64,000 nt of DNA. Origin: an uncultured virus (IMG/VR IMGVR_UViG_3300008108_000202) (lineage: Duplodnaviria > Heunggongvirae > Uroviricota > Caudoviricetes). The position numbers and the translations under genes were made by a program. The first letter of the stretch is position 1, and every line of letters starts with the position of its first letter. A model generated the notes under the pieces. That model was not told the origin of the DNA. It saw only the letters and a program-made list of their open reading frames with translations, and did not search any database. This document shows positions 1-60,714 of this stretch, piece by piece. The stretch lies in the IMG/VR virus record IMGVR_UViG_3300008108_000202, one strand, 5' to 3'.

Positions 1-124
1 TCTCTTGTATCAAACTTTTTGTAGTCCAAACGATTCCTTTATTGAACTTAATCATTTTGGTAATATCTCCTACGACTCATTCTCAACTCACTTGCCTAAG
101 CCTTGTCCGTTGTAAATTCTTTTG

Positions 125-198
125 TGTGTATGATGGGTTACGATCCCATTACCTTTGGTTCCACAAACCAACGCTCTACCGATTGAGCTACATACACC
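125..198 (-). tRNA. tRNA-His(GTG), G-1 present, atypical T-loop GATCGTAAC
   Basis: Cloverleaf; anticodon arm TTGGT-TTGTGGA-ACCAA; acceptor GTGTATG/CATACAC. Confidence 0.9.
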
Positions 199-206
199 AT
201 GTATTG

Positions 207-276
207 TACCGATAAAGGGTAACGATCCCAATGACAACCAGGATATGAGCCCGGCTCGGACACCTGTCCTATCGGT
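207..276 (-). tRNA. Degenerate tRNA with CAT anticodon (Met or Ile2)
   Basis: Anticodon arm CCGGG-CTCATAT-CCTGG, acceptor ACCGATA/TATCGGT; very short D-arm and weak T-stem. Confidence 0.55.
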
Positions 277-282
277 ATGTTG

Positions 283-371
283 AGGAAAGCAGTGGTAACG
301 ATCCACAATCGGTTTCTCACCGATCACATTGTTTAGCAAACAAGTCCCGTCGCCTTCAGGGATTACTTTCC
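283..371 (-). tRNA. tRNA-Ser(GCT)
   Basis: GCT anticodon, long variable arm GATCGGT-GAGAA-ACCGATT, acceptor GGAAAGT/GCTTTCC. Confidence 0.85.
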
Positions 372-376
372 ATTTG

Positions 377-449
377 TGCTCATCACCGGTTACGATCCGA
401 TTCTCTCCACGATATCAGCGTGGTGCTTTCCCGATTAAGCTAGATGAGC
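377..449 (-). tRNA. tRNA-Ile(GAT)
   Basis: CCACG-CTGATAT-CGTGG; acceptor GCTCATC/GATGAGC. Confidence 0.9.
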
Positions 450-452
450 CTG

Positions 453-986
453 TTATAATAGTTTTTCGTGTATCTCAGCATGACAATTTGAGCACACTAA
501 TAAACATTTATCCACTTCTTCTTTTAATCTGTCAAATGACAAACTCTTTCCTGAAATTGTGAAGTCTTTTTCATTTGGATTTTTATGGTGGAATTGTAGT
601 GCGGTCAGACATTTATTATAACCACATATTTCACACTTCCCTCCCTTGTATTCAATCAATTTCTTTTTAGTTCTCTTTCTCCATGATATAACAGATTGAG
701 ACCCACTAATCTTTTTAACCCTAACAACACTTTTAACGTGTTTTTTAACAGTTTCAAAAGACCTACCCGTAATCCTTACAACTTTTTTTAAGGAACCCAC
801 TTCATCGTATAATTTTTGAAGTTGTTCTTTTTCTTCTTCTGTTACTTTTTGATTGTTGTTGCCTAATTTATGTATCTGACAATGATACGACACTGTTGAC
901 ATTGCGCAACCTAAAATTTTTGTAATTTCTTTGTAGGTTTTTCCTTCTTTCCTCAAAGATATAATTTTTTCCGAATACCTTTCCAT
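453..986 (-). CDS. HNH endonuclease with N-terminal HTH (putative homing endonuclease)
   Basis: CEICG...LQFHH...CLLVCSNCHAEIH; N-terminal HTH (KTYKEITKILGCAMSTVSYH). Confidence 0.85.
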   Translation of the reverse strand: MERYSEKIISLRKEGKTYKEITKILGCAMSTVSYHCQIHKLGNNNQKVTEEEKEQLQKLYDEVGSLKKVVRITGRSFETVKKHVKSVVRVKKISGSQSVISWRKRTKKKLIEYKGGKCEICGYNKCLTALQFHHKNPNEKDFTISGKSLSFDRLKEEVDKCLLVCSNCHAEIHEKLL

Positions 987-1036
987 AACATTAACATTTT
1001 ATATTAATAAATATCTGATAGTTCGGAAAAAATAAG

Positions 1037-1124
1037 CTGATGGGGTGGGATTCGAACCCACGGTGGAGAAAATTCTCGTCGGATTAACAGTCCGATGCGT
1101 TCGGCCAACTACGCGAACCCATCA
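1037..1124 (-). tRNA. tRNA-Asn(GTT) with long variable arm
   Basis: TCGGA-CTGTTAA-TCCGA; GGTTCGAATCC T-arm; extra arm GAGAATTTTCTC. Confidence 0.85.
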
Positions 1125-1133
1125 ATTTTTTTG

Positions 1134-1216
1134 TGGGAGAGGAGGGACTTGAACCCCCACGTCCTCACGGAAACGGTTTTACAGACCGCCGAGCCAACCA
1201 ATTGCTCAACACTCCC
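1134..1216 (-). tRNA. tRNA-Tyr(GTA)
   Basis: GCGGT-CTGTAAA-ACCGT; long variable arm; GGTTCAAGTCC. Confidence 0.92.
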
Positions 1217-1222
1217 AAATTT

Positions 1223-1355
1223 AGGAAATCAGAAGATGGTTGCGTGGACATCTGATTTTACGATTGGCGTTACTTTGGTGTATATCTCCCAACTCCGATG
1301 ATACTGACCGATATACACTCTCGTGTCATTAGTATCACCCTTCCCCAATCAACCT
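1223..1355 (-). ncRNA. Candidate structured ncRNA with pseudoknot
   Basis: Several perfect helices (see findings) between tRNA-Val and tRNA-Tyr. Confidence 0.55.
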
Positions 1356-1359
1356 ATAG

Positions 1360-1430
1360 TACCCCAAGATGGATTTGAACCACCACCGATAGTATGTAAC
1401 ACTATCACGCTCCCATTACGCCATTGAGGT
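1360..1430 (-). tRNA. tRNA-Val(TAC)
   Basis: ATAGT-GTTACAT-ACTAT; GGTTCAAATCC; acceptor ACCTCAA/TTGGGGT. Confidence 0.88.
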
Positions 1431-1499
1431 GTTTTAGTTTTTCAGAACAAAAGTAACCATTTTTTGGTAACTATCACCCCTTTTTACTAAATTTTTTTG

Positions 1500-1574
1500 T
1501 GACCCCGGTGAGACTTGAACTCACGACCCCTCCGTTAAAAGCGGAGTGCTCTAAACCAACTGAGCTACGAGATC
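1500..1574 (-). tRNA. tRNA-Lys(TTT)
   Basis: CTCCG-CTTTTAA-CGGAG; canonical D and T arms. Confidence 0.93.
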
Positions 1575-1592
1575 TTCTGTTTGTCATACTTG

Positions 1593-1781
1593 TCACTTTC
1601 CATAAGACATTAGTTTTTGATTGTTTATTTTTATTTCTGTTTCTACCCTTTTTAGTTCTTCACTTAAATCCCCACGGTAGGATGGGTCTTTACTAATTTT
1701 GGATAAACTTAAGTAATAATTGTTTAAACCCTCAAGTCTTCCTTTAATTGCAATTTTTTCACATTCTTCGTTTGTTACCAT
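1593..1781 (-). CDS. Hypothetical protein between tRNAs
   Basis: 62-aa ORF MVTNEECEK...; longer track ORF overlaps tRNA-Pro. Confidence 0.55.
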   Translation of the reverse strand: MVTNEECEKIAIKGRLEGLNNYYLSLSKISKDPSYRGDLSEELKRVETEIKINNQKLMSYGK

Positions 1782-1796
1782 TTTTTTAAATTTTAG

Positions 1797-1869
1797 TAGG
1801 GTAGACAGGGGTCGAACCTGCATCGTCCACGTCCCAAACGTGGTGACTTACCAATTAGTCAACTACCCT
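1797..1869 (-). tRNA. tRNA-Pro(TGG)
   Basis: CCACG-TTTGGGA-CGTGG; GGTTCGACCC. Confidence 0.92.
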
Positions 1870-1875
1870 ATGTTG

Positions 1876-1959
1876 AGGAAGCCTGAGGTGTCGATCCCCA
1901 TACCTTTCAGTACCGCCCGTTTTCAAGACGGGGTTGCAAGCCGTTGCAATTAGACTTCC
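1876..1959 (-). tRNA. tRNA-Ser(TGA)
   Basis: CCCGT-CTTGAAA-ACGGG; long variable arm; T-loop GATCGACAC. Confidence 0.88.
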
Positions 1960-1968
1960 TTTTTGTTG

Positions 1969-2040
1969 ATCTCCCCCGAGGGTTCGAACCTCAATTCCAT
2001 GGACCAAAACCATGTGTCCTGCCAGTTAGACGAGGGGAGA
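1969..2040 (-). tRNA. tRNA-Gln(TTG)
   Basis: CATGG-TTTTGGT-CCATG; GGTTCGAACC. Confidence 0.92.
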
Positions 2041-2079
2041 ATTTAAGGCCAATATGTCAAAGAACATTTTCTTTTTTTG

Positions 2080-2151
2080 AGGTCTCTGTCGGAACTGACC
2101 CGACAACTCAACTTTACAAGAGTCGTATTTTTCCTGTTAAACTAAGAGACC
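2080..2151 (-). tRNA. tRNA-Thr(TGT), atypical T-loop
   Basis: CGACT-CTTGTAA-AGTTG; acceptor GGTCTCT/AGAGACC; T-arm GTCGG-GTCAGTT-CCGAC. Confidence 0.82.
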
Positions 2152-2160
2152 AATGTAAAA

Positions 2161-2189
2161 CAAAAAACCCGAGATTTTGTGTCTCGGGT
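2161..2189 (-). terminator. Intrinsic terminator directly upstream of tRNA cluster (attenuator terminator)
   Basis: ACCCGAGA-CACAAAA-TCTCGGGT followed by T-run on minus strand. Confidence 0.8.
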
Positions 2190-2220
2190 CTTTCATTTTT
2201 ATTTTATATTTGATGATACG

Positions 2221-2331
2221 TTATACCATACTATTAAATGAAAGACACCGAAGACGCTGAAGCGTAATATACGACTTGACCCAATTCTGACACGGGTTAC
2301 TAAAGTTCATATGTTTCATTGTTGTTTTCAT
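2221..2331 (-). CDS. Putative attenuator leader peptide, 36 aa (MKTTMKHMNFSNPCQNWVKSYITLQRLRCLSFNSMV)
   Basis: Short ORF whose 3' part is complementary to the terminator 5' arm; TATTTAT motif 7 nt upstream. Confidence 0.65.
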   Translation of the reverse strand: MKTTMKHMNFSNPCQNWVKSYITLQRLRCLSFNSMV

Positions 2332-2413
2332 CTTGGTTATAAATATATGTATTTTACAAAAAGTTTTAAATTCTTTTACAAATTTAGTAATATTTTTTTA
2401 TTTGACAAGCATT

Positions 2414-2527
2414 TTATTGATTTTTTTCATAAAATTCTTCTTGATCCTCTTTTAATTTATGTAAATAAACATAAAATTCTTCAGAGTTTATAAATTCATT
2501 ATGAATTATTTCTAAAATTTCGTCCAT
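2414..2527 (-). CDS. Small acidic hypothetical protein (37 aa)
   Basis: MDEILEIIHNEF...; TAACTTTG promoter-like element immediately upstream. Confidence 0.45.
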   Translation of the reverse strand: MDEILEIIHNEFINSEEFYVYLHKLKEDQEEFYEKNQ

Positions 2528-2608
2528 GTAACAAAGTTAAATATTTTTTTAATAAAAGACAACTTTTGTAGTTTAATTGGATATTTATATAATATAATCC
2601 ATTAGACT

Positions 2609-3130
2609 ATGAAAAAAGAAGAATTAGAAAACTTGATAAATGATGGTAAGTCATTGAACCAAATTAGTAAGGAAATAGGTAAGTCTTTAACATCTGTTAG
2701 GTATTGGGCAAAAAAACACAAAATACCTTTTGAAACTAAAAATTTCTCAAATCAAGGGATAAAGGATTATGGGGAATCAAGATTATGCCCAAGATGTAAA
2801 AAATCATGTTCTATTGATCAATTTTATGATAGGAGAGGTAAAAAAAATAGTTCAGTATATTGTAAAAAATGTACCACTGAACAGGTTGTGGAACGAACTC
2901 AGAAATTGAAACAAGAAATGGTAAACTATAAAGGGGGTTGTTGTGAATTATGTGGGTATGACAAATATATAGGTGCGTTAGATTTTCATCATATAAACCC
3001 AAATGAAAAAGATTTTACAATTGCAAAAGTTAGACAATATAAATTTGATGAAGTAATAAAGGAAGAATTGGATAAATGTATGTTAGTATGTTCTAATTGT
3101 CACCGTGAGATACACGGTGGATTAAAGTAG
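2609..3130 (+). CDS. HNH endonuclease with HTH and Zn-finger (putative homing endonuclease)
   Basis: CPRC..CKKC; CELCG...LDFHH...CSNCHREIH; paralog of 453..986. Confidence 0.85.
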   Translation: MKKEELENLINDGKSLNQISKEIGKSLTSVRYWAKKHKIPFETKNFSNQGIKDYGESRLCPRCKKSCSIDQFYDRRGKKNSSVYCKKCTTEQVVERTQKLKQEMVNYKGGCCELCGYDKYIGALDFHHINPNEKDFTIAKVRQYKFDEVIKEELDKCMLVCSNCHREIHGGLK

Positions 3131-3204
3131 TACACCCGCCAGGATTCAAACCTGGAATCTACTCATTAGAAGTGAGTTGCATTGTTCAATTATGCTACGG
3201 GTGC
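3131..3204 (-). tRNA. tRNA-Arg(TCT)
   Basis: ACTCA-CTTCTAA-TGAGT; acceptor GCACCCG/CGGGTGT. Confidence 0.9.
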
Positions 3205-3210
3205 GTTTTA

Positions 3211-3396
3211 TCAGATCTTCTTTACCTCATAAGTATGACCTGAATCTGAATTAGTTTGAAAGATGTCTTTCATTTTTTCAGCATCTTCTTCTGTTTCAAA
3301 TTCCCAAACTTCATTATCACTATTTAGAAGGATAACAGGTAGTCTTTTTGTGGGGATTGAACTTGATACTTTTACGTGTTTAACTATTACATACAT
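3211..3396 (-). CDS. Hypothetical protein
   Basis: 61-aa ORF. Confidence 0.65.
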   Translation of the reverse strand: MYVIVKHVKVSSSIPTKRLPVILLNSDNEVWEFETEEDAEKMKDIFQTNSDSGHTYEVKKI

Positions 3397-3443
3397 ATGA
3401 CAATTATAATAACTTATTTTTGATCTGTCAATAGGTATAAAAC

Positions 3444-3467
3444 AAAATGGGGATTACTCCCCACTTT
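3444..3467 (-). terminator. Intrinsic terminator
   Basis: AAAGTGGGGA-GTAA-TCCCCATTTT. Confidence 0.7.
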
Positions 3468-3543
3468 GCTAGATAATAAACACCTCCCTTTCTTTTGATG
3501 GTTTATCCTCACCCAACAACTACGTCAGATAAGTTTCATCGGG

Positions 3544-5310
3544 TTAATCAGTACCTTTAATTTTCTTAAGTATTGATTCAACCATAGTTTTTTTCTTCTT
3601 ACTTTGTATTGCTTCTGAAATTGTATTTTTAACAATTGACTCAAGTTGCATTCCTGGAGTTTTTTGTATTGTTTTCATATAATCTTTTAAACAAAACTTA
3701 TCAATACCAACTTTTGATCTTTTCTTATCGGTTGTTTGATAACATCTATATAATGACTTTAATTCATCTCTAATTCCAAATTCACCCTCAACAAAGTTTT
3801 TATCTTCATCACATTTTATAACGGTTTCTTTTAATTTAGTTAAAGTGTTTGAATCCAAACCTTCAAGATCCTTAAATTGTATAATTCTTTCAGATTTGAA
3901 TGCTCTATAATAAAGTTGTTTAACCGCACTTTTACAAGCCTTTCTTTTTACTTCAGGTCTTGTATCTGCCGATTTTGCTGTATTTATGATATTATCAACA
4001 TCAACTTTCTCTGACTCAGAATAAGATGCTTTCCATATTGGAGTTGTGTTTCCGTAATGTTTTTCATAAACACTTCCTCCATATTGTTCAAGACTTTTGA
4101 AAAATTCACCAACAGTAGTTTTTGTTCCTAACAACTCAGGTTTATCTAATGATGGTTCAACAAAAGTATAACCTTTTGATTCAACGAATTTTTTAACTTC
4201 AGGATTAATTACTACCTCATCTTTTTTTGGTGTTGGGGTAGGTGTAGGAGTTGTACCTTGTGGTTTTGTATCACTCATAGGATCCGATGAAGATTTTGGT
4301 GGCATTCTACTAATGTTTTGCTCAAACAATCTTAAGTTAAGAACTTTCTTAACAACGGATTCTGACATGGTTTCATAAGAATCATCAAATGTTGATTCTT
4401 CTTCTGTTGGTTGCCAATCACTCTTAGGATCTTTAATAAGTTTAATAATTGTTTTTTGATTATTATCTAAACCTGCAGTTAAATAACCAACCTCACCTTT
4501 TTTTGCTTTACCTTGTGGGTGTATTGGGTATAAGACAACATAGTAATCACCATTTTTAAAATCATTAACTAATTTTTGAATTCCTGATTCTGATGTTGTA
4601 TCAATTTCTTGTGGTGTCAATTCAACCTTTGATTCATTTTTATCGTATTTAATTACATATACAAACGTTTGAGTTTTTGGTATAAACTTTAATGCTCCCA
4701 AATTAGTTATTTGACCATTCTTCATTAAAGTTTTCCACCATTCTTTTTGTTCTTCAGGTCCAAATTTCAATCCACCACCAGGAGTTACAGGAGAAGAAGA
4801 ACAGATTGATTCAATCTCTTCTTTTGTTGCAGAAGTTTTACCTGTTTTTAATTTTAATGCGGACTCTGTATTTGACCCAAAGTATGAATCTTGTTTTGAT
4901 CCGAGACATCCTTGTAGTTTGTAAATTGATCCATTAACATTTGGACTTCCCTTTGAGGATCCAGGATCTTTACATCCTTTTACAAATGGCCCTGTTGTAC
5001 AATCATTGTATGTTTGACTTACAGGTGTTATTGTATCGTCAGTGTTTGAGGTTACTTCTTTTCTTTTAATATGATAACTTGTACTATTGTTTGCTTTACA
5101 CAAATAAGTTTTTTTATCGTATATTTTTTCACTTGCTTTGTTATAATTTTCTTCTGGTTGTCTAGACCAACCATCTGACGCTAATGCATTAAGATCGGAT
5201 TTACATTTACTAAAAGAGGGCTCTGTGGTTGGTTTACCACCTGGTTTACCACCATCTTTTTTTGGCTTACCACTTGGTTTACCTTCACTAATATATTTAA
5301 TTGGTTTCAT
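3544..5310 (-). CDS. Large hypothetical protein with peptidoglycan-binding-like motif
   Basis: 588 aa; LQGCLG..QDSYFGSNTESAL resembles PG_binding_1 core; PT-rich linker. Confidence 0.7.
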   Translation of the reverse strand: MKPIKYISEGKPSGKPKKDGGKPGGKPTTEPSFSKCKSDLNALASDGWSRQPEENYNKASEKIYDKKTYLCKANNSTSYHIKRKEVTSNTDDTITPVSQTYNDCTTGPFVKGCKDPGSSKGSPNVNGSIYKLQGCLGSKQDSYFGSNTESALKLKTGKTSATKEEIESICSSSPVTPGGGLKFGPEEQKEWWKTLMKNGQITNLGALKFIPKTQTFVYVIKYDKNESKVELTPQEIDTTSESGIQKLVNDFKNGDYYVVLYPIHPQGKAKKGEVGYLTAGLDNNQKTIIKLIKDPKSDWQPTEEESTFDDSYETMSESVVKKVLNLRLFEQNISRMPPKSSSDPMSDTKPQGTTPTPTPTPKKDEVVINPEVKKFVESKGYTFVEPSLDKPELLGTKTTVGEFFKSLEQYGGSVYEKHYGNTTPIWKASYSESEKVDVDNIINTAKSADTRPEVKRKACKSAVKQLYYRAFKSERIIQFKDLEGLDSNTLTKLKETVIKCDEDKNFVEGEFGIRDELKSLYRCYQTTDKKRSKVGIDKFCLKDYMKTIQKTPGMQLESIVKNTISEAIQSKKKKTMVESILKKIKGTD

Positions 5311-6693: not shown

Positions 6694-8829
6694 TTATTTT
6701 TGTATTTTTGGGGAATATGTGACTCTATTATGTCCTTTTCTACCAACCTCATTAAACTTATCAAAATTTATTGGGTTCCATTTTTTAAACCTCTCACTCC
6801 AAATATAGAAATCATAATTATCTTTATCCCTTTCCAGTTTTTCAAATTCAAAATCATTTAAAACTTCTTTTGTTGATTTTGGTTTAAGTGTAATTTTATC
6901 ATCTTGTACTGGTTCTAACTTACCAAATAATTCTTCATCCTTTATATTATCCGTTTTTGTTGTTTCATTTGGTTTTCCGATTTGTTGTTTACCTCCAAAC
7001 CACTTTTCGGCAGACCTATCCAATTCTTCTTCAGTTCCAAATTCAAGCATGTTAGAAGCAATATTTTCTTGACTTACTTTACTTAATTGTTCTTCTAAGA
7101 CTCTAGCTTGTTCTTCTGCCTCCGGTAATCCTTTTTGTTGTATCAAATAATAGAGTTTTCTAATATCAGAATTTTGTCTATCCTCATCTCTACCAAAAAC
7201 CGCCAAATATAATTTATCAATACCTACCATAGTTCCACCAACATTTATTAACATTTTTGGGATAGTACCAACTGGGAATTCCTTTTTAAATGAATTAATA
7301 ATCCACGACATTGTTTGGTAGAACTTTTTTAAAGATTCCTTTGGTGATAGTTTACTCACCTCCTTCAAAAAGTTGGATGGGATGTTTTTAGTTACATTTT
7401 TACTAATTTGTTTTTCAACTCCCTGAGTGATTTCCTTCTCTATTACGCCAAGCTCCTTTTTCAAATTTTGATAAACAACTTTTTGGGTGGTTTCTAATTC
7501 ACCTTTAGCACCTTTCTCTAATAATTCTAATGTTCCTTCTTTACCTAATTTAACCGCAGTTTTAGATCCTCTAAGAACTTTTAAAAATTCACCACCAGGA
7601 ATAATCTCAAGGGCTAACATCATTGATCCCATATATTTATCACCCTCATAGAAATATGTTGCCGAATCACCCAAACCTGCCGCTGTTGATACACCTAATA
7701 GAATTGGGCTTAATGGTGAAGGTATTAATCCTAAAATTAATGTACCAATTTCAACAATAGTTAAAAAAGTGTGCATATCAGAAGATGTCATTTCTCCTGT
7801 TGGATATCCACCTTTCCATCCAGGTACTTTAACCAATTTTGGGTAGTCAGCGATTTTTATTTGTGATAAATTATCTGTACCCCAATACGTAGTAAACCAA
7901 TTCCACCAACCATCAGGAAATAATTCTGATCTATATGCATTTTTGTCTAATTTAAATGTATCATTTAAATCTTTCTGTATTTTACCCCAATCAAAATAGA
8001 AATTGGTTAAAAATGTATATTGTGGTGGTTTTAATCCTTGAGCATTTTCGTCTTTTTTTGAATTAACTTTATTTGCCATGCTCAAATTAAAACTATCTAC
8101 GGTCATATAAGATCCTGGAGGACAAGTACTCCCAACTTTTTTTACACAAACTGAATATGCACTATCACCGGCACCAACTATTCTTTGTTGTATTTTATCT
8201 GTTAATTTTTTTGTTGCTCTAATTGCAGCAAGAGCAAATGCGTGGTTATTACTAATCGCACCACTAGGATCTAATCCGTTTGATTTTAAAAAATCAATTG
8301 TGGGTTTTAATTCTTCTGTTGCCTTTTCCGATTTTATTTGTTTCAAATGGTCTTTATATTGTTGACCATATTTAACCCAAGCCTTTCTAATATATTCATT
8401 ATCATAAGCACCTTTCGGACTCAAATTAATAGTTTTTGCAAATTCAGGGTCTTTGTTTATAATCCAACTTCTAAATTTATTTCCTTGATCTGTATTTTTT
8501 ATATAAAAAACGGATCCAATACCTGATTTTTTAAAAACATTTGATAATACTGAAATTGCATTTTTATCTTTTGTTGAATCAAGATCAACATATTGATCAT
8601 TAAATTCTATTCTAGACCATTTACCATCAGAAGGAGTCCAATAATAGGTTTTACCTGTTGGGCTGTCAATTCTAATTCTATTGTATTCCTTTTCATATGT
8701 TACAATATAATCACCAACTTTTGCCGATTGCTCAACCAATACAACATTATAGTTTTCCTTTAATGTCATTTTTGAATCGTACTTCATATTAAGAAGAACT
8801 CTATGTAATATGTCCTCCATATTATTCAT
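6694..8829 (-). CDS. Large hypothetical protein with hydrophobic hairpin (possible virion/ejected protein)
   Basis: 711 aa; FLTIVEIGTLILGLIPSPLSPILLGVSTAAG hydrophobic region. Confidence 0.75.
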   Translation of the reverse strand: MNNMEDILHRVLLNMKYDSKMTLKENYNVVLVEQSAKVGDYIVTYEKEYNRIRIDSPTGKTYYWTPSDGKWSRIEFNDQYVDLDSTKDKNAISVLSNVFKKSGIGSVFYIKNTDQGNKFRSWIINKDPEFAKTINLSPKGAYDNEYIRKAWVKYGQQYKDHLKQIKSEKATEELKPTIDFLKSNGLDPSGAISNNHAFALAAIRATKKLTDKIQQRIVGAGDSAYSVCVKKVGSTCPPGSYMTVDSFNLSMANKVNSKKDENAQGLKPPQYTFLTNFYFDWGKIQKDLNDTFKLDKNAYRSELFPDGWWNWFTTYWGTDNLSQIKIADYPKLVKVPGWKGGYPTGEMTSSDMHTFLTIVEIGTLILGLIPSPLSPILLGVSTAAGLGDSATYFYEGDKYMGSMMLALEIIPGGEFLKVLRGSKTAVKLGKEGTLELLEKGAKGELETTQKVVYQNLKKELGVIEKEITQGVEKQISKNVTKNIPSNFLKEVSKLSPKESLKKFYQTMSWIINSFKKEFPVGTIPKMLINVGGTMVGIDKLYLAVFGRDEDRQNSDIRKLYYLIQQKGLPEAEEQARVLEEQLSKVSQENIASNMLEFGTEEELDRSAEKWFGGKQQIGKPNETTKTDNIKDEELFGKLEPVQDDKITLKPKSTKEVLNDFEFEKLERDKDNYDFYIWSERFKKWNPINFDKFNEVGRKGHNRVTYSPKIQK

Positions 8830-26805: not shown

Positions 26806-26887
26806 ATTACAAATATAGTAAAATATTTGAGAATAAAAATTTTACCCATGAATTTTATGTAATTTTTTTCTGGGATAATAGTTATAA

Positions 26888-58866: not shown

Positions 58867-59553
58867 TTAATTTGATAAAGGTGCTTTAATTGTTGGGTGT
58901 GATTGGTAATCTATTAGTTTTATTAAACTATGGTCTAATTCATCAAATGGAACAGTAAACCCATCTGTTCTTCTCATATCACCACATATCATTAGTTTTG
59001 GTAAGGGATATGGTTCTCTTGTTCTTCCAACCACTATTTGTTTTTTAATACCTTCATTCATAGGACCATTTGGGTACAGTGTTGGGGATTCTTCAAATAT
59101 AGGTTGTCCAATCTGTTCCTTGGCTTGTTCAATGTGATTCAAGTATAAATGCGTATCACCTAAATTACCAATCAATTCATCAGGAACCATATTAACTTGT
59201 TTTGCAATGATTTCAAGTAGTAAACCATAAGATGCTATATTGAATGGTAAACCTAAGAATGTATCTACTGAACGTTGATTCCACATTAAAGAGATTGCTC
59301 TTTTTGGGATGTTATACCAACTAAAATTATCTTTTGGCAATTCATATTCATCCCATTCACCAGGATACGTTTTCTTAAAGTATTCAACTCTTTCATCAAA
59401 ACTCAACTCTCTTGTATAAACTTGAAATCCATAGTGACAAGGTGGAAGAACCATTTTTCCTTCTGTGATATGTTTTCTTCCGTATCTATTATTAAAATCT
59501 TTATCTGTTTTTAGTTTTTCTAAAAACTCTTCTTTTGTTAATTTTTTATCCAT
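58867..59553 (-). CDS. thyA: Thymidylate synthase, C-terminal half
   Basis: LPPCH catalytic motif, QRSVD, LGLPFNIASY, GDTHLY.NH. Confidence 0.9.
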   Translation of the reverse strand: MDKKLTKEEFLEKLKTDKDFNNRYGRKHITEGKMVLPPCHYGFQVYTRELSFDERVEYFKKTYPGEWDEYELPKDNFSWYNIPKRAISLMWNQRSVDTFLGLPFNIASYGLLLEIIAKQVNMVPDELIGNLGDTHLYLNHIEQAKEQIGQPIFEESPTLYPNGPMNEGIKKQIVVGRTREPYPLPKLMICGDMRRTDGFTVPFDELDHSLIKLIDYQSHPTIKAPLSN

Positions 59554-59562
59554 AACTTACTT

Positions 59563-59982
59563 TTATTTTACTATAATATCATTCAAATGAATTGAACGAC
59601 CATCACACTCCGTTTTTACATATACGTAAGAAAATATGTTACGTTCAACAGGTGCGGAACTTAGGTACCAGTTACCGATTACAAAATTTCTTTTACCGTC
59701 ACCAAATGACATATTTTGTTGTATTGTAATTTTATTACCAATTCTATATTCCTGTTCAGTTACAGTTGATTTAAAATAAATCTCATTACTATCATCTAAC
59801 AATAGTTCATAGGATTCTCTACCATTACCAGTAATTAGTTCCCAGTCACTACTACCTATCACCATTAATTTTGGTAATTTATTTTCTTCTGAGGGGCATT
59901 CGTCATTTAAGAAATGAAAGTAATCACCTTTTTTAATTACTAAATCCTCTGTTTTTTTGTGTTTGTAGATAATTTTACTCAT
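59563..59982 (-). CDS. Hypothetical protein inserted between thyA halves
   Basis: 139-aa ORF, no recognisable nuclease motif. Confidence 0.7.
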   Translation of the reverse strand: MSKIIYKHKKTEDLVIKKGDYFHFLNDECPSEENKLPKLMVIGSSDWELITGNGRESYELLLDDSNEIYFKSTVTEQEYRIGNKITIQQNMSFGDGKRNFVIGNWYLSSAPVERNIFSYVYVKTECDGRSIHLNDIIVK

Positions 59983-60009
59983 AATTCCAATTTTTAAAAT
60001 TTTTGTTTT

Positions 60010-60714
60010 CTACTTAAAATTCTTTAAATAATCTTGATAAAGTTCATCATCAGTTCTATAATCAGTAACAGGTAAATCTGCTACATTCCACGCATTAACC
60101 ATCAAACGTCTTGAGTCTGGGTTTGTTTTAAGGTCGTGGATTAGGTTTGATATTTGGTCTATTGATTCAATATTCCATTTTAGCATCGGTCTTTCTGGGT
60201 GAGATGGGTCTACTATATCGCTGGTCTCCCATTTAATATTTAACCAATCTCGCCATTGCTTACCATATATTCTACCTAACTCACCCCACTTGTTAGCAAA
60301 CTCATTATCTGTTTTTATTTTGTTGATGAATTCTTCTTGTGTGTAAAGAGAATATTCTTCGTTAGTAAAAAACCCATCAAAAGATTCTTCTAATTTTAAC
60401 CATTTTCTACTAAAAGTACCTTCATCAGCATTTTTACAATAGTTCTTATAAGCATCACCATCCCAGATATGACAATTGTTATCAACTAAGTATTTGATAT
60501 TTGTATCACCACGTAAGAACCATAACAATTCTGTTACAATTCCTTTCCAATACATTTTCTTTGTTGTGAGTAAAGGAAATCCTTCTGACATCTTATGACG
60601 GATCTGCTTTCCGAATATGGATAGGGTTCCTGTACCAGTGCGATCATCCTTACGAACACCATTGTCTAGGATGTCTTGTAGGAGTGCTTGGTATTTTTTA
60701 TCTAGTGTGTTCAT
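60010..60714 (-). CDS. thyA: Thymidylate synthase, N-terminal half
   Basis: DRTGTGT, FPLLTTKK, ELLWFLRG, YGKQWR, NPDSRR..NAWN. Confidence 0.9.
   Translation of the reverse strand: MNTLDKKYQALLQDILDNGVRKDDRTGTGTLSIFGKQIRHKMSEGFPLLTTKKMYWKGIVTELLWFLRGDTNIKYLVDNNCHIWDGDAYKNYCKNADEGTFSRKWLKLEESFDGFFTNEEYSLYTQEEFINKIKTDNEFANKWGELGRIYGKQWRDWLNIKWETSDIVDPSHPERPMLKWNIESIDQISNLIHDLKTNPDSRRLMVNAWNVADLPVTDYRTDDELYQDYLKNFK

Follow-up and report, generated by a model that had tools for sequence, protein, structure and literature searches.

In the 64,000-nt DNA stretch of the uncultured virus IMGVR_UViG_3300008108_000202 (referred to as a whole as the window), the first block of phage tRNA genes is preceded on the minus strand by a real and conserved cassette, consisting, in this order, of promoter P1, the TATATTTAT box, an open reading frame (ORF) of 36 codons, a hairpin at the stop codon, an A-rich stretch, an intrinsic terminator and then tRNA-Thr(UGU). 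The cassette is almost certainly functional. The explanation favored here, with a probability of roughly 40%, is that it represents a translation-linked transcription attenuator, i.e., a cis-regulatory leader, of the first tRNA operon. It probably works like a valve that controls transcription of the tRNAs. A translated leader plus terminator ahead of the first tRNA, conserved in a widespread freshwater phage family, would give phage tRNA genes a control device built on the logic of amino-acid-operon attenuators.

A preliminary description of the window had proposed a leader-peptide attenuator at this site. The TATTTAT motif, the 36-codon ORF (2331..2221) and the terminator (2189..2161, 10 nt before tRNA-Thr) were all located where it had placed them, and the 36-aa translation was identical to the peptide given there.

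Related sequences were collected in two main ways. With the neighboring gene for a 61-aa protein (ORF61) as a query, 26 viral loci were retrieved, 12 of which carried a homolog of the leader (69–79% identity) and the same gene order: ORF61, tRNA-Arg, variable inserts, leader, tRNA-Thr, Gln etc. A search pattern composed of the invariant box and the ORF start matched 39 viral and at least 120 metagenome stretches. Among the matches listed, 140 usable stretches were reduced to 98 unique ones, comprising 73 family members and 25 other genes or small ORFs; weak similarity to the family was noted in only one of these 25 (L082). The architecture was evaluated on the 73 distinct sequences, pairings on 64 distinct sequences, codons on 56 distinct coding sequences (CDS), variation by codon position on 22 unique CDS, promoter columns and RNAalifold predictions on 26 aligned relatives, and the comparison of the leader with ORF61 on 12 loci.

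The nearest record (G001, identical with locus L009) is a 56.7-kb viral record that matches the window without a single difference over 751 nt (window 1900..2650) and is therefore uninformative for covariation. DNA runs containing at least half of the window's sampled words (11 rows) were labelled as lake, freshwater or "fungus" metagenomes. Searches of viral contigs with an exact 18-mer from the terminator-arm region (R3 in Table 1) yielded four loci, every one of them unrelated coding DNA, and those with a 24-mer from tRNA-Thr yielded none; no relatives of the neighboring 588-aa protein were found among viral contigs, and the GenBank phage collection contributed only five records, each with a match to tRNA-Gln alone.

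The conservation of the leader ORF together with the terminator, which had been suggested as a check of the proposal, was confirmed in all 73 distinct relatives, and the tRNA started 9–22 nt past the U-tract in 72 of them (56 nt in the remaining one); the antiterminator pairing, treated below, was not family-wide. The first tRNA was Thr in 71/73 relatives, Trp in one and Gln in one.

The terminator itself has a stem core CCCGAGA/UCUCGGG (2188..2182 with 2174..2168), followed by UUUUUUGUUUU (2167..2157). The folding energy of this core was −11.8 kcal/mol, and when the pairs between the A-tract and the U-tract were included, the stem reached 18 bp and −21.5 kcal/mol. In the relatives, which all possess it, energies ranged from −8.4 to −16.6 kcal/mol (median −12.3). 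The stem was 99.3% paired across the family, and compensatory changes on both sides were observed in four of seven pairs. The element also scores as a terminator on the plus strand.

Table 1. Features of the leader cassette and of the first tRNA block in the window.
Feature	Position	Strand	Remarks
P1 −33 element TTG	2406..2408	minus	19-nt spacer, then TAAATTTG; TTG columns (nearly) invariant in 26 aligned relatives
P1 −7 box TAAATTTG	2379..2386	minus	Bacteroidota sigma-A type TAnnTTTG
TATATTTAT box	2339..2347	minus	second promoter-like −7/−10 element; TATTTAT at 2345..2339
R1, start-codon region	2325..2333	minus	can pair with R2b
Leader ORF, 36 codons + stop (MKTTMKHMNFSNPCQNWVKSYITLQRLRCLSFNSMV)	2221..2331	minus	ATG 2331, TAA 2223..2221
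R2, antiterminator strand of the preliminary description	2236..2255	minus	R2a (2255..2248) competes for the terminator 5' arm
R2b	2246..2236	minus	pairs with R1 or with the A-rich stretch ahead of the terminator
Small hairpin at or just past the stop codon	2213..2231	minus	from the fold of the window
R3, A-rich stretch + terminator 5' arm	2181..2198	minus	partner of R2
Intrinsic terminator	2157..2189	minus	stem 2189..2182 with 2174..2167, loop 2181..2175, U-tract 2167..2157
tRNA-Thr(UGU)	2079..2151	minus	first gene of the tRNA block
Remaining first tRNA block in the window	124..2040	minus	Gln, Ser-UGA, Pro, Lys, Val, Tyr, Asn, Ile, Ser-GCU, His; interrupted by an HNH endonuclease ORF

A frame of 35–37 codons was retained in 73/73 distinct relatives (among the matches listed). 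Gap runs in the coding part, present at eight places, were all 3 or 6 nt long, and those past the stop codon measured 1–7 nt. Each of the remaining two frames contained at least two stop codons in each sequence. A chance ORF with chance complementarity beside an ordinary terminator could be imagined, since AT-rich DNA is rich in matches of the AUGAAA/UUUCAU type and ordinary terminators gain up to 6.0 kcal/mol from upstream pairing; the conservation of the open frame in all 73 distinct sequences from many samples effectively refutes this explanation, which is left with next to no probability.

Variation in the 22 unique CDS was spread evenly over the three codon positions (19.9/20.2/21.6), with a ratio of nonsynonymous to synonymous differences (pN/pS) of 0.77. 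When the leader and the neighboring 61-aa gene were compared in the same 12 loci, the entropy by codon position was 18.3/18.8/21.3 for the leader and 31.3/20.4/59.9 for ORF61, with pS values of 0.30 and 0.69, pN values of 0.22 and 0.18, and pN/pS ratios of 0.75 and 0.26, respectively. These alignments thus show a leader frame that is retained, with weak constraint on the peptide and constraint on the synonymous sites. This combination would be expected of a regulatory leader that is translated; a protein gene, whether normal or decaying, should look different. Translation of the frame is most likely on this evidence.

The peptide itself is basic and polar and had no family match in Pfam, NCBIfam or PHROGs. 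When the locus was considered as a type I toxin or small hydrophobic peptide locus, the features of such loci were not found, the only match relevant to them being one to ohsC, which was below threshold (26.4 vs 50 bits).

The same data bear on the possibility that the cassette is an autonomous small gene, that is, an ordinary fast-evolving phage gene with the usual box and its own terminator, with the tRNAs supplied by constitutive partial read-through and no sensing involved. A protein gene should vary at third positions, as its neighbor does, whereas the leader varies evenly, and its synonymous choice is biased to rare codons at fixed positions. In favor of a plain gene, the cassette obeys the grammar of this genome (terminator, TATTTAT, 3–7 nt, ATG, gene, terminator), and its terminator also closes the upstream unit of ORF61, tRNA-Arg and a 37-aa ORF. 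In similar cassettes (G001 7944..7760; L039, L096) a promoter lies behind the terminator, and most relatives have a weak antiterminator or none. On the other side, at least 11 promoterless tRNAs directly behind a terminator with 6–8 U residues would be an odd arrangement for constitutive expression. On balance, an autonomous small gene is possible and somewhat unlikely.

Codon content set the leader apart from the phage genes, which agrees with the remark in the preliminary description on unusual GC-ending codons. In the window, which has a G+C content of 29.6%, the codon adaptation index (CAI) of the leader was 0.417, compared to 0.58–0.76 in 59 genes, and its G+C content at third codon positions (GC3) was 0.417, compared to a mean of 0.219. 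An equally low CAI was found in only 0.2% of 873 windows of 36 codons within genes. In the 56 distinct CDS, CAI values ranged from 0.345 to 0.558, i.e., 2.0–4.6 standard deviations under those of the same peptides recoded by genome usage. The rare codons occupied fixed alignment positions in the middle of the ORF, despite amino-acid changes, and the first eight and last eight codons were common ones. CCG was present in all 56 CDS, ACG in 54, AGG or CGG in 52, UCG in 48 and CAG in 44.

The relation of these codons to the downstream tRNAs was also evaluated, in a post hoc test on related sequences. A median of 79% of the rare codons of the leader were readable by tRNAs of the downstream block, compared to 39% of rare-codon occurrences in phage genes; in one relative (L037) this applied to 10 of 11 rare codons (P 0.0006). 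It had also been pointed out that the peptide samples 16 of 20 amino acids, including all those of the downstream tRNAs. The count is correct and carries no information, and coverage of the amino acids is trivial for an array of at least 24 tRNAs.

Transcription of the first tRNA block was considered next to the promoter-like elements listed in Table 1. No plausible promoter was recognized by eye between the terminator and tRNA-Thr, where the gap after the U-tract is 5 nt. Without a promoter of its own, transcription of the tRNA block must pass the terminator. The promoter-like elements feeding the block were found only upstream of the leader ORF, and the next P1-like promoter past the terminator in G001 lies 2.3 kb downstream. 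Transcription from P1 is predicted to start near 2374. In the 26 aligned relatives, the TA and TTTG of the −7 box were kept and its two middle bases varied (AA, TC, TA, CA), and most columns of the ATATATTTATAA block were invariant. Promoters of the P1 type (TTG, 18–21 nt, TAnnTTTG) occur at seven places in the tRNA array of G001, which comprises 24 tRNAs in 14 kb.

The TATATTTAT box would appear to be the general gene-start signal of this phage. The minus strand has 78 copies of TATTT[AG]T, which commonly lie 3–7 nt 5' of an ATG and often directly behind a terminator, and in paralogous cassettes the box serves as the −10 element of TTGACA-17-TATATT. A TA..TTT[AG]T box also stands 3–7 nt ahead of many minus-strand ATG codons, for example at 26815, 28979, 29560 and 32801. 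Shine-Dalgarno-like motifs were found at only 4 of 61 ORF starts in the window. The box and the scarcity of such motifs suggest that each gene has a promoter of its own, that most mRNAs are leaderless and that the host belongs to the Bacteroidota. TAnnTTTG at −12 to −5 is described as the sigma-A box of Flavobacterium and flavobacteria (PMC9723704), and flavobacteria are described as being without Shine-Dalgarno sequences (PMC9723704, PMC6847099); on this basis, a Bacteroidota host is probable. Many mRNAs of the phage are probably leaderless, judging from these motifs; for Flavobacterium psychrophilum, a share of leaderless mRNAs of just 5.5% is given in PMC9723704. The same source reports leader-peptide attenuation in flavobacteria.

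In the late control of phage lambda, transcription from PR' yields the 6S RNA up to tR', unless the antiterminator Q acts. The layout found here, a promoter followed by a transcript of about 170–215 nt, a strong terminator and an operon, would also fit factor-dependent or temporal antitermination, in which only a short terminated RNA is made at first and read-through comes later, by means of a phage factor or of a polymerase that is modified or phage-encoded, with the conserved nucleotides serving as loading or pause signals. The lambda segment shares with the cassette a promoter, an RNA of about 200 nt and a strong terminator ahead of a long operon, with a −10-like element early in the transcript; by analogy with lambda Q, a sigma-dependent pause could be caused by the invariant −7/−10-like box, which lies about 28–36 nt from the start of the P1 transcript. 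The nucleotide-level constraint, uniform over codon positions, is compatible with such signals. The CheckV completeness of G001 (19% at 56.7 kb) and related contigs of 257–281 kb indicate that this may be a large phage with transcription factors of its own. The open frame in 73/73 relatives, which the lambda 6S RNA does not need, is left unexplained by antitermination, as are the indels in multiples of three and the rare-codon pattern. No Q- or N-like gene appeared in a PHROGs scan of 71 window proteins, which was not a search aimed at such genes, no binding element for a factor of this type was identified, and RNAalifold found no conserved RNA structure apart from the terminator. Antitermination is accordingly rated as rather unlikely.

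The proposal of a mutually exclusive antiterminator depends on pairings of the 3' part of the ORF (Table 1). The complementarity of 2255..2236 (R2) with 2198..2181 (R3) was verified as a duplex of 18 pairs with two 1-nt bulges and −21.8 kcal/mol, and it belongs to the minimum-energy fold predicted for the nascent RNA when the 3' arm of the terminator has yet to be made. The 194-nt region folded better than its shuffled versions (z −3.19; 1 of 200 shuffles was as good). Among 16 perfect-stem terminators of the window, the leader terminator ranked first in the gain of its 5' arm from upstream pairing (−8.8 kcal/mol), the other 15 showing 0 to −6.0 kcal/mol; this gain is the highest in the window and not a wild outlier. 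Six distinct sequences of the window's subclade keep R2:R3 duplexes of −18.9 to −23.1 kcal/mol. In a relative of about 3% divergence (contigs from four DNA runs), just two substitutions were present in 2161..2345, one of which changes Leu27 to Pro and lies at a bulge of the R2:R3 duplex.

Two further pairings were also seen in the relatives. R1 and R2b form a 9-bp helix (R1 with 2244..2236) in which 97.0% of cells were paired in 64 distinct sequences; one-sided changes keep G-U pairs and no double changes were seen, and since these columns barely vary, the helix did not score better than shuffles. The equivalent of the stop-codon hairpin was 89% paired in the relatives, with one pair changed on both sides (UA 38, AU 10). 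When RNAalifold was applied by clade, R2:R3 was predicted in two of three clades and R1:R2b in all three. An additional candidate within the ORF, a "region 1" formed by a CCCGAG copy in codons 12–14 that would pair with R2a, was rejected; it was 70.3% paired, and 500 of 500 shuffles reached its covariation score.

A number of observations weigh against reading the cassette as an attenuator. At equilibrium, the extended terminator prevailed whichever stretch of the ORF was masked. The mutually exclusive antiterminator held for the window and its subclade; in the family, a gain of at least 6 kcal/mol (the maximum of the 15 ordinary terminators) was reached in only 3 of 64 distinct sequences, and the gain was zero in 28 of 64, with a median of −0.75 kcal/mol. 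In favor of the pairing, an imperfect 6-bp helix of R2a with R3 was detected family-wide (77.1% paired), and none of 500 shuffles reached its covariation score, unlike the region 1 pairing taken as a control; such a shuffle test can be beaten by related sequences without structure. The main covarying pair of this helix (C-G 22, U-A 20, unpaired 19) largely tracks clades. In a swap test, cognate combinations averaged −6.7 kcal/mol and non-cognate ones −5.9 kcal/mol, with the cognate pair better in 16 of 26 cases, which indicates no clear co-evolution. In three recombinant-looking sequences (L095, L142, L146), an R2 that best fits one type of terminator was joined to another type, and RNAalifold applied to all 26 sequences yielded no conserved structure besides the terminator.

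The geometry of a trp-type switch, as it had originally been proposed, was not borne out either. R2 corresponds to nt 77–96 of the ORF and the stop codon to nt 109–111, so that R2 lies about 12–34 nt 5' of the stop. A ribosome covers about 15 nt on either side of its P site. A ribosome at the stop codon would consequently cover only the last bases of R2 and leave its terminator-competing half free, and the trp-type OFF state, in which a terminating ribosome masks region 2, is not available in this sequence. As for the codons, 7 of 12 rare codons in the window leader were readable by its own block (P 0.14), which is not significant alone, and the leader has no tandem run of any single codon. 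The Rfam models Thr_leader (27.6 vs 55 bits) and Trp_leader (21.5 vs 41 bits) gave matches below threshold over the terminator region. Related small-ORF cassettes elsewhere in such arrays have their own promoter before the next tRNA.

Under the attenuator explanation, transcripts would start from P1 and the TATATTTAT box, both host-type promoters, and would contain first the 35–37-codon frame and then the strong intrinsic terminator, past which the tRNA block begins after another 5–20 nt. Translation would take place on a leaderless or short-leader mRNA, as proposed for the other genes of the phage, and the passage of ribosomes, rather than the peptide, would be what counts. The central run of rare codons (CCG, AGC, CAG, UCG, GUG, ACG, AAG, AGG) may slow ribosomes just 5' of R2. 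With few or slow ribosomes on R2, this strand could pair with R3 before the 3' arm of the terminator is made, and RNA polymerase would read into the tRNAs; with brisk ribosome traffic across R2, the terminator would form. Such a traffic model, in which passing ribosomes favor the terminator and scarce or upstream-stalled ones favor read-through, is plausible; translation, the direction of the switch and the link to tRNA supply are all inferred from sequence.

A more specific form of the attenuator explanation, which is doubtful at present, is that the phage uses the leader to sense decoding capacity and thereby to control its own tRNA array by feedback. The conserved rare codons CCG, UCG, ACG, CAG, AAG, GUG, AGC and AGG would then be the wobble-read codons of downstream tRNAs, namely Pro-UGG, Ser-UGA, Thr-UGU, Gln-UUG, Lys-UUU, Val-UAC, Ser-GCU and Arg-UCU. 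Ribosome speed over these codons would set the level of read-through. Scarcity of these tRNAs, also when caused by host tRNA cleavage, would raise expression of the array, and abundance would lower it. If ribosome speed does set read-through, the array would be self-regulating and responsive to tRNA depletion, which is relevant to the arms race of phage tRNAs with host defenses that cleave tRNA. If true, such a sensor would stand as the first attenuator with tRNA as its product. In full-text literature searches, with older subscription literature (e.g., on the T4 and T5 tRNA regions) outside their scope, no leader-peptide attenuator before tRNA genes was found.

When compared with the attenuators of amino-acid operons (trp, his, thr, leu, pheA), the cassette is alike in that its 5' leader holds a short ORF and that only an intrinsic terminator separates this ORF from the genes immediately downstream. 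In the window, the terminator 5' arm and the 3' part of the ORF also have alternative pairings. Leader codons tied to the product of the operon may have a counterpart in rare codons readable by downstream tRNAs. The differences are that the genes concerned are phage tRNA genes and not biosynthetic enzymes, that a tandem codon run is missing, and that the antiterminator strand lies inside the ORF well 5' of the stop, its long form being confined to one subclade. T-box riboswitch leaders likewise contain a terminator, with read-through depending on the state of the tRNA; the present cassette contains an ORF and would sense decoding instead of binding tRNA. No T-box was present among 18 Rfam matches (E up to 1) in window 1..5000, and specifier and T-box sequences were not sought beyond that scan.

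The rnTrpL/peTrpL system of Sinorhizobium is similar in being a terminated attenuator RNA with a small ORF, and action in trans is described for the Sinorhizobium system. Trans-acting attenuator RNAs and leader peptides of this kind (PMC6614838, PMC7298713) provide a precedent for the view that the terminated leader transcript is a trans-acting small RNA, possibly of dual function together with its peptide. Uniform conservation at the nucleotide level, own promoters and a strong terminator would suit such an RNA. The fixed site directly before the first tRNA (72/73) would be left unexplained, frame retention would need an extra assumption, and no Rfam family was matched at threshold; a small RNA acting in trans is therefore considered improbable.

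Other cassettes of a small ORF and a terminator were noticed near tRNAs (G001, L039, L096, L082, L090), sharing the box and a ATGAAAACA start. In the G001 cassette (7944..7760) the frame has decayed, and a P1-like promoter and then tRNA-Leu come next. In L039 and L096, an ORF of 26–28 aa is followed by a terminator, a promoter and tRNA-Glu; GAG and TTC or TTT codons occur in these ORFs, which are located ahead of tRNA-Glu and tRNA-Phe. The cassette in L082 (MKTTTTYT..., with two CCG codons) lies ahead of tRNA-Pro and that in L090 ahead of tRNA-Cys, with no visible promoter between in either case. A small ORF with a terminator is thus a recurring module near tRNAs that is not always in an attenuator position.

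Upstream of the cassette, a perfect TTGACA-17-TATAAT promoter (12/12) at 3431..3403 (minus strand) lies directly behind a terminator and ahead of the conserved 61-aa gene (3396..3211). The stop codon of this gene is followed after a few nucleotides by tRNA-Arg(UCU), so that a small protein gene and a tRNA form one unit. The distance from this tRNA-Arg to tRNA-Thr varied from about 0.4 to 3 kb in the relatives.

The tRNA array contains two HNH homing-endonuclease ORFs, at 2609..3130 (plus strand) and 453..986 (minus strand). The former is absent from the relative of about 3% divergence, whose contig joins position 2527 to 3130 with 13 other letters between. At the low end of the window, the tRNAs listed for window 1..200 and for L009 10071..10330 differ: the window has His, whereas G001 has Arg(acg) and Arg(tct); array content therefore varies between near-identical phages. 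tRNA-Ser(UGA), at about 1959..1872 (minus strand), was missed by ARAGORN and by the Rfam tRNA model and aligns with tRNA-Ser(tga) of L024. A spacer motif, GTTCTTTGACATATTGG, was found with variants shortly 5' of several tRNA genes (window 2068..2052, minus strand; L009 at about 7700..7684; L039, L047 and L082) and may be a pre-tRNA leader or a processing signal.

Far from the tRNA array, the gene for thymidylate synthase is apparently split (58867..60714, minus strand): the ORFs 60010..60714 and 58867..59553 match successive parts of one PHROG, with a 139-aa ORF between them, and the split may reflect the insertion of an intron or a homing element.

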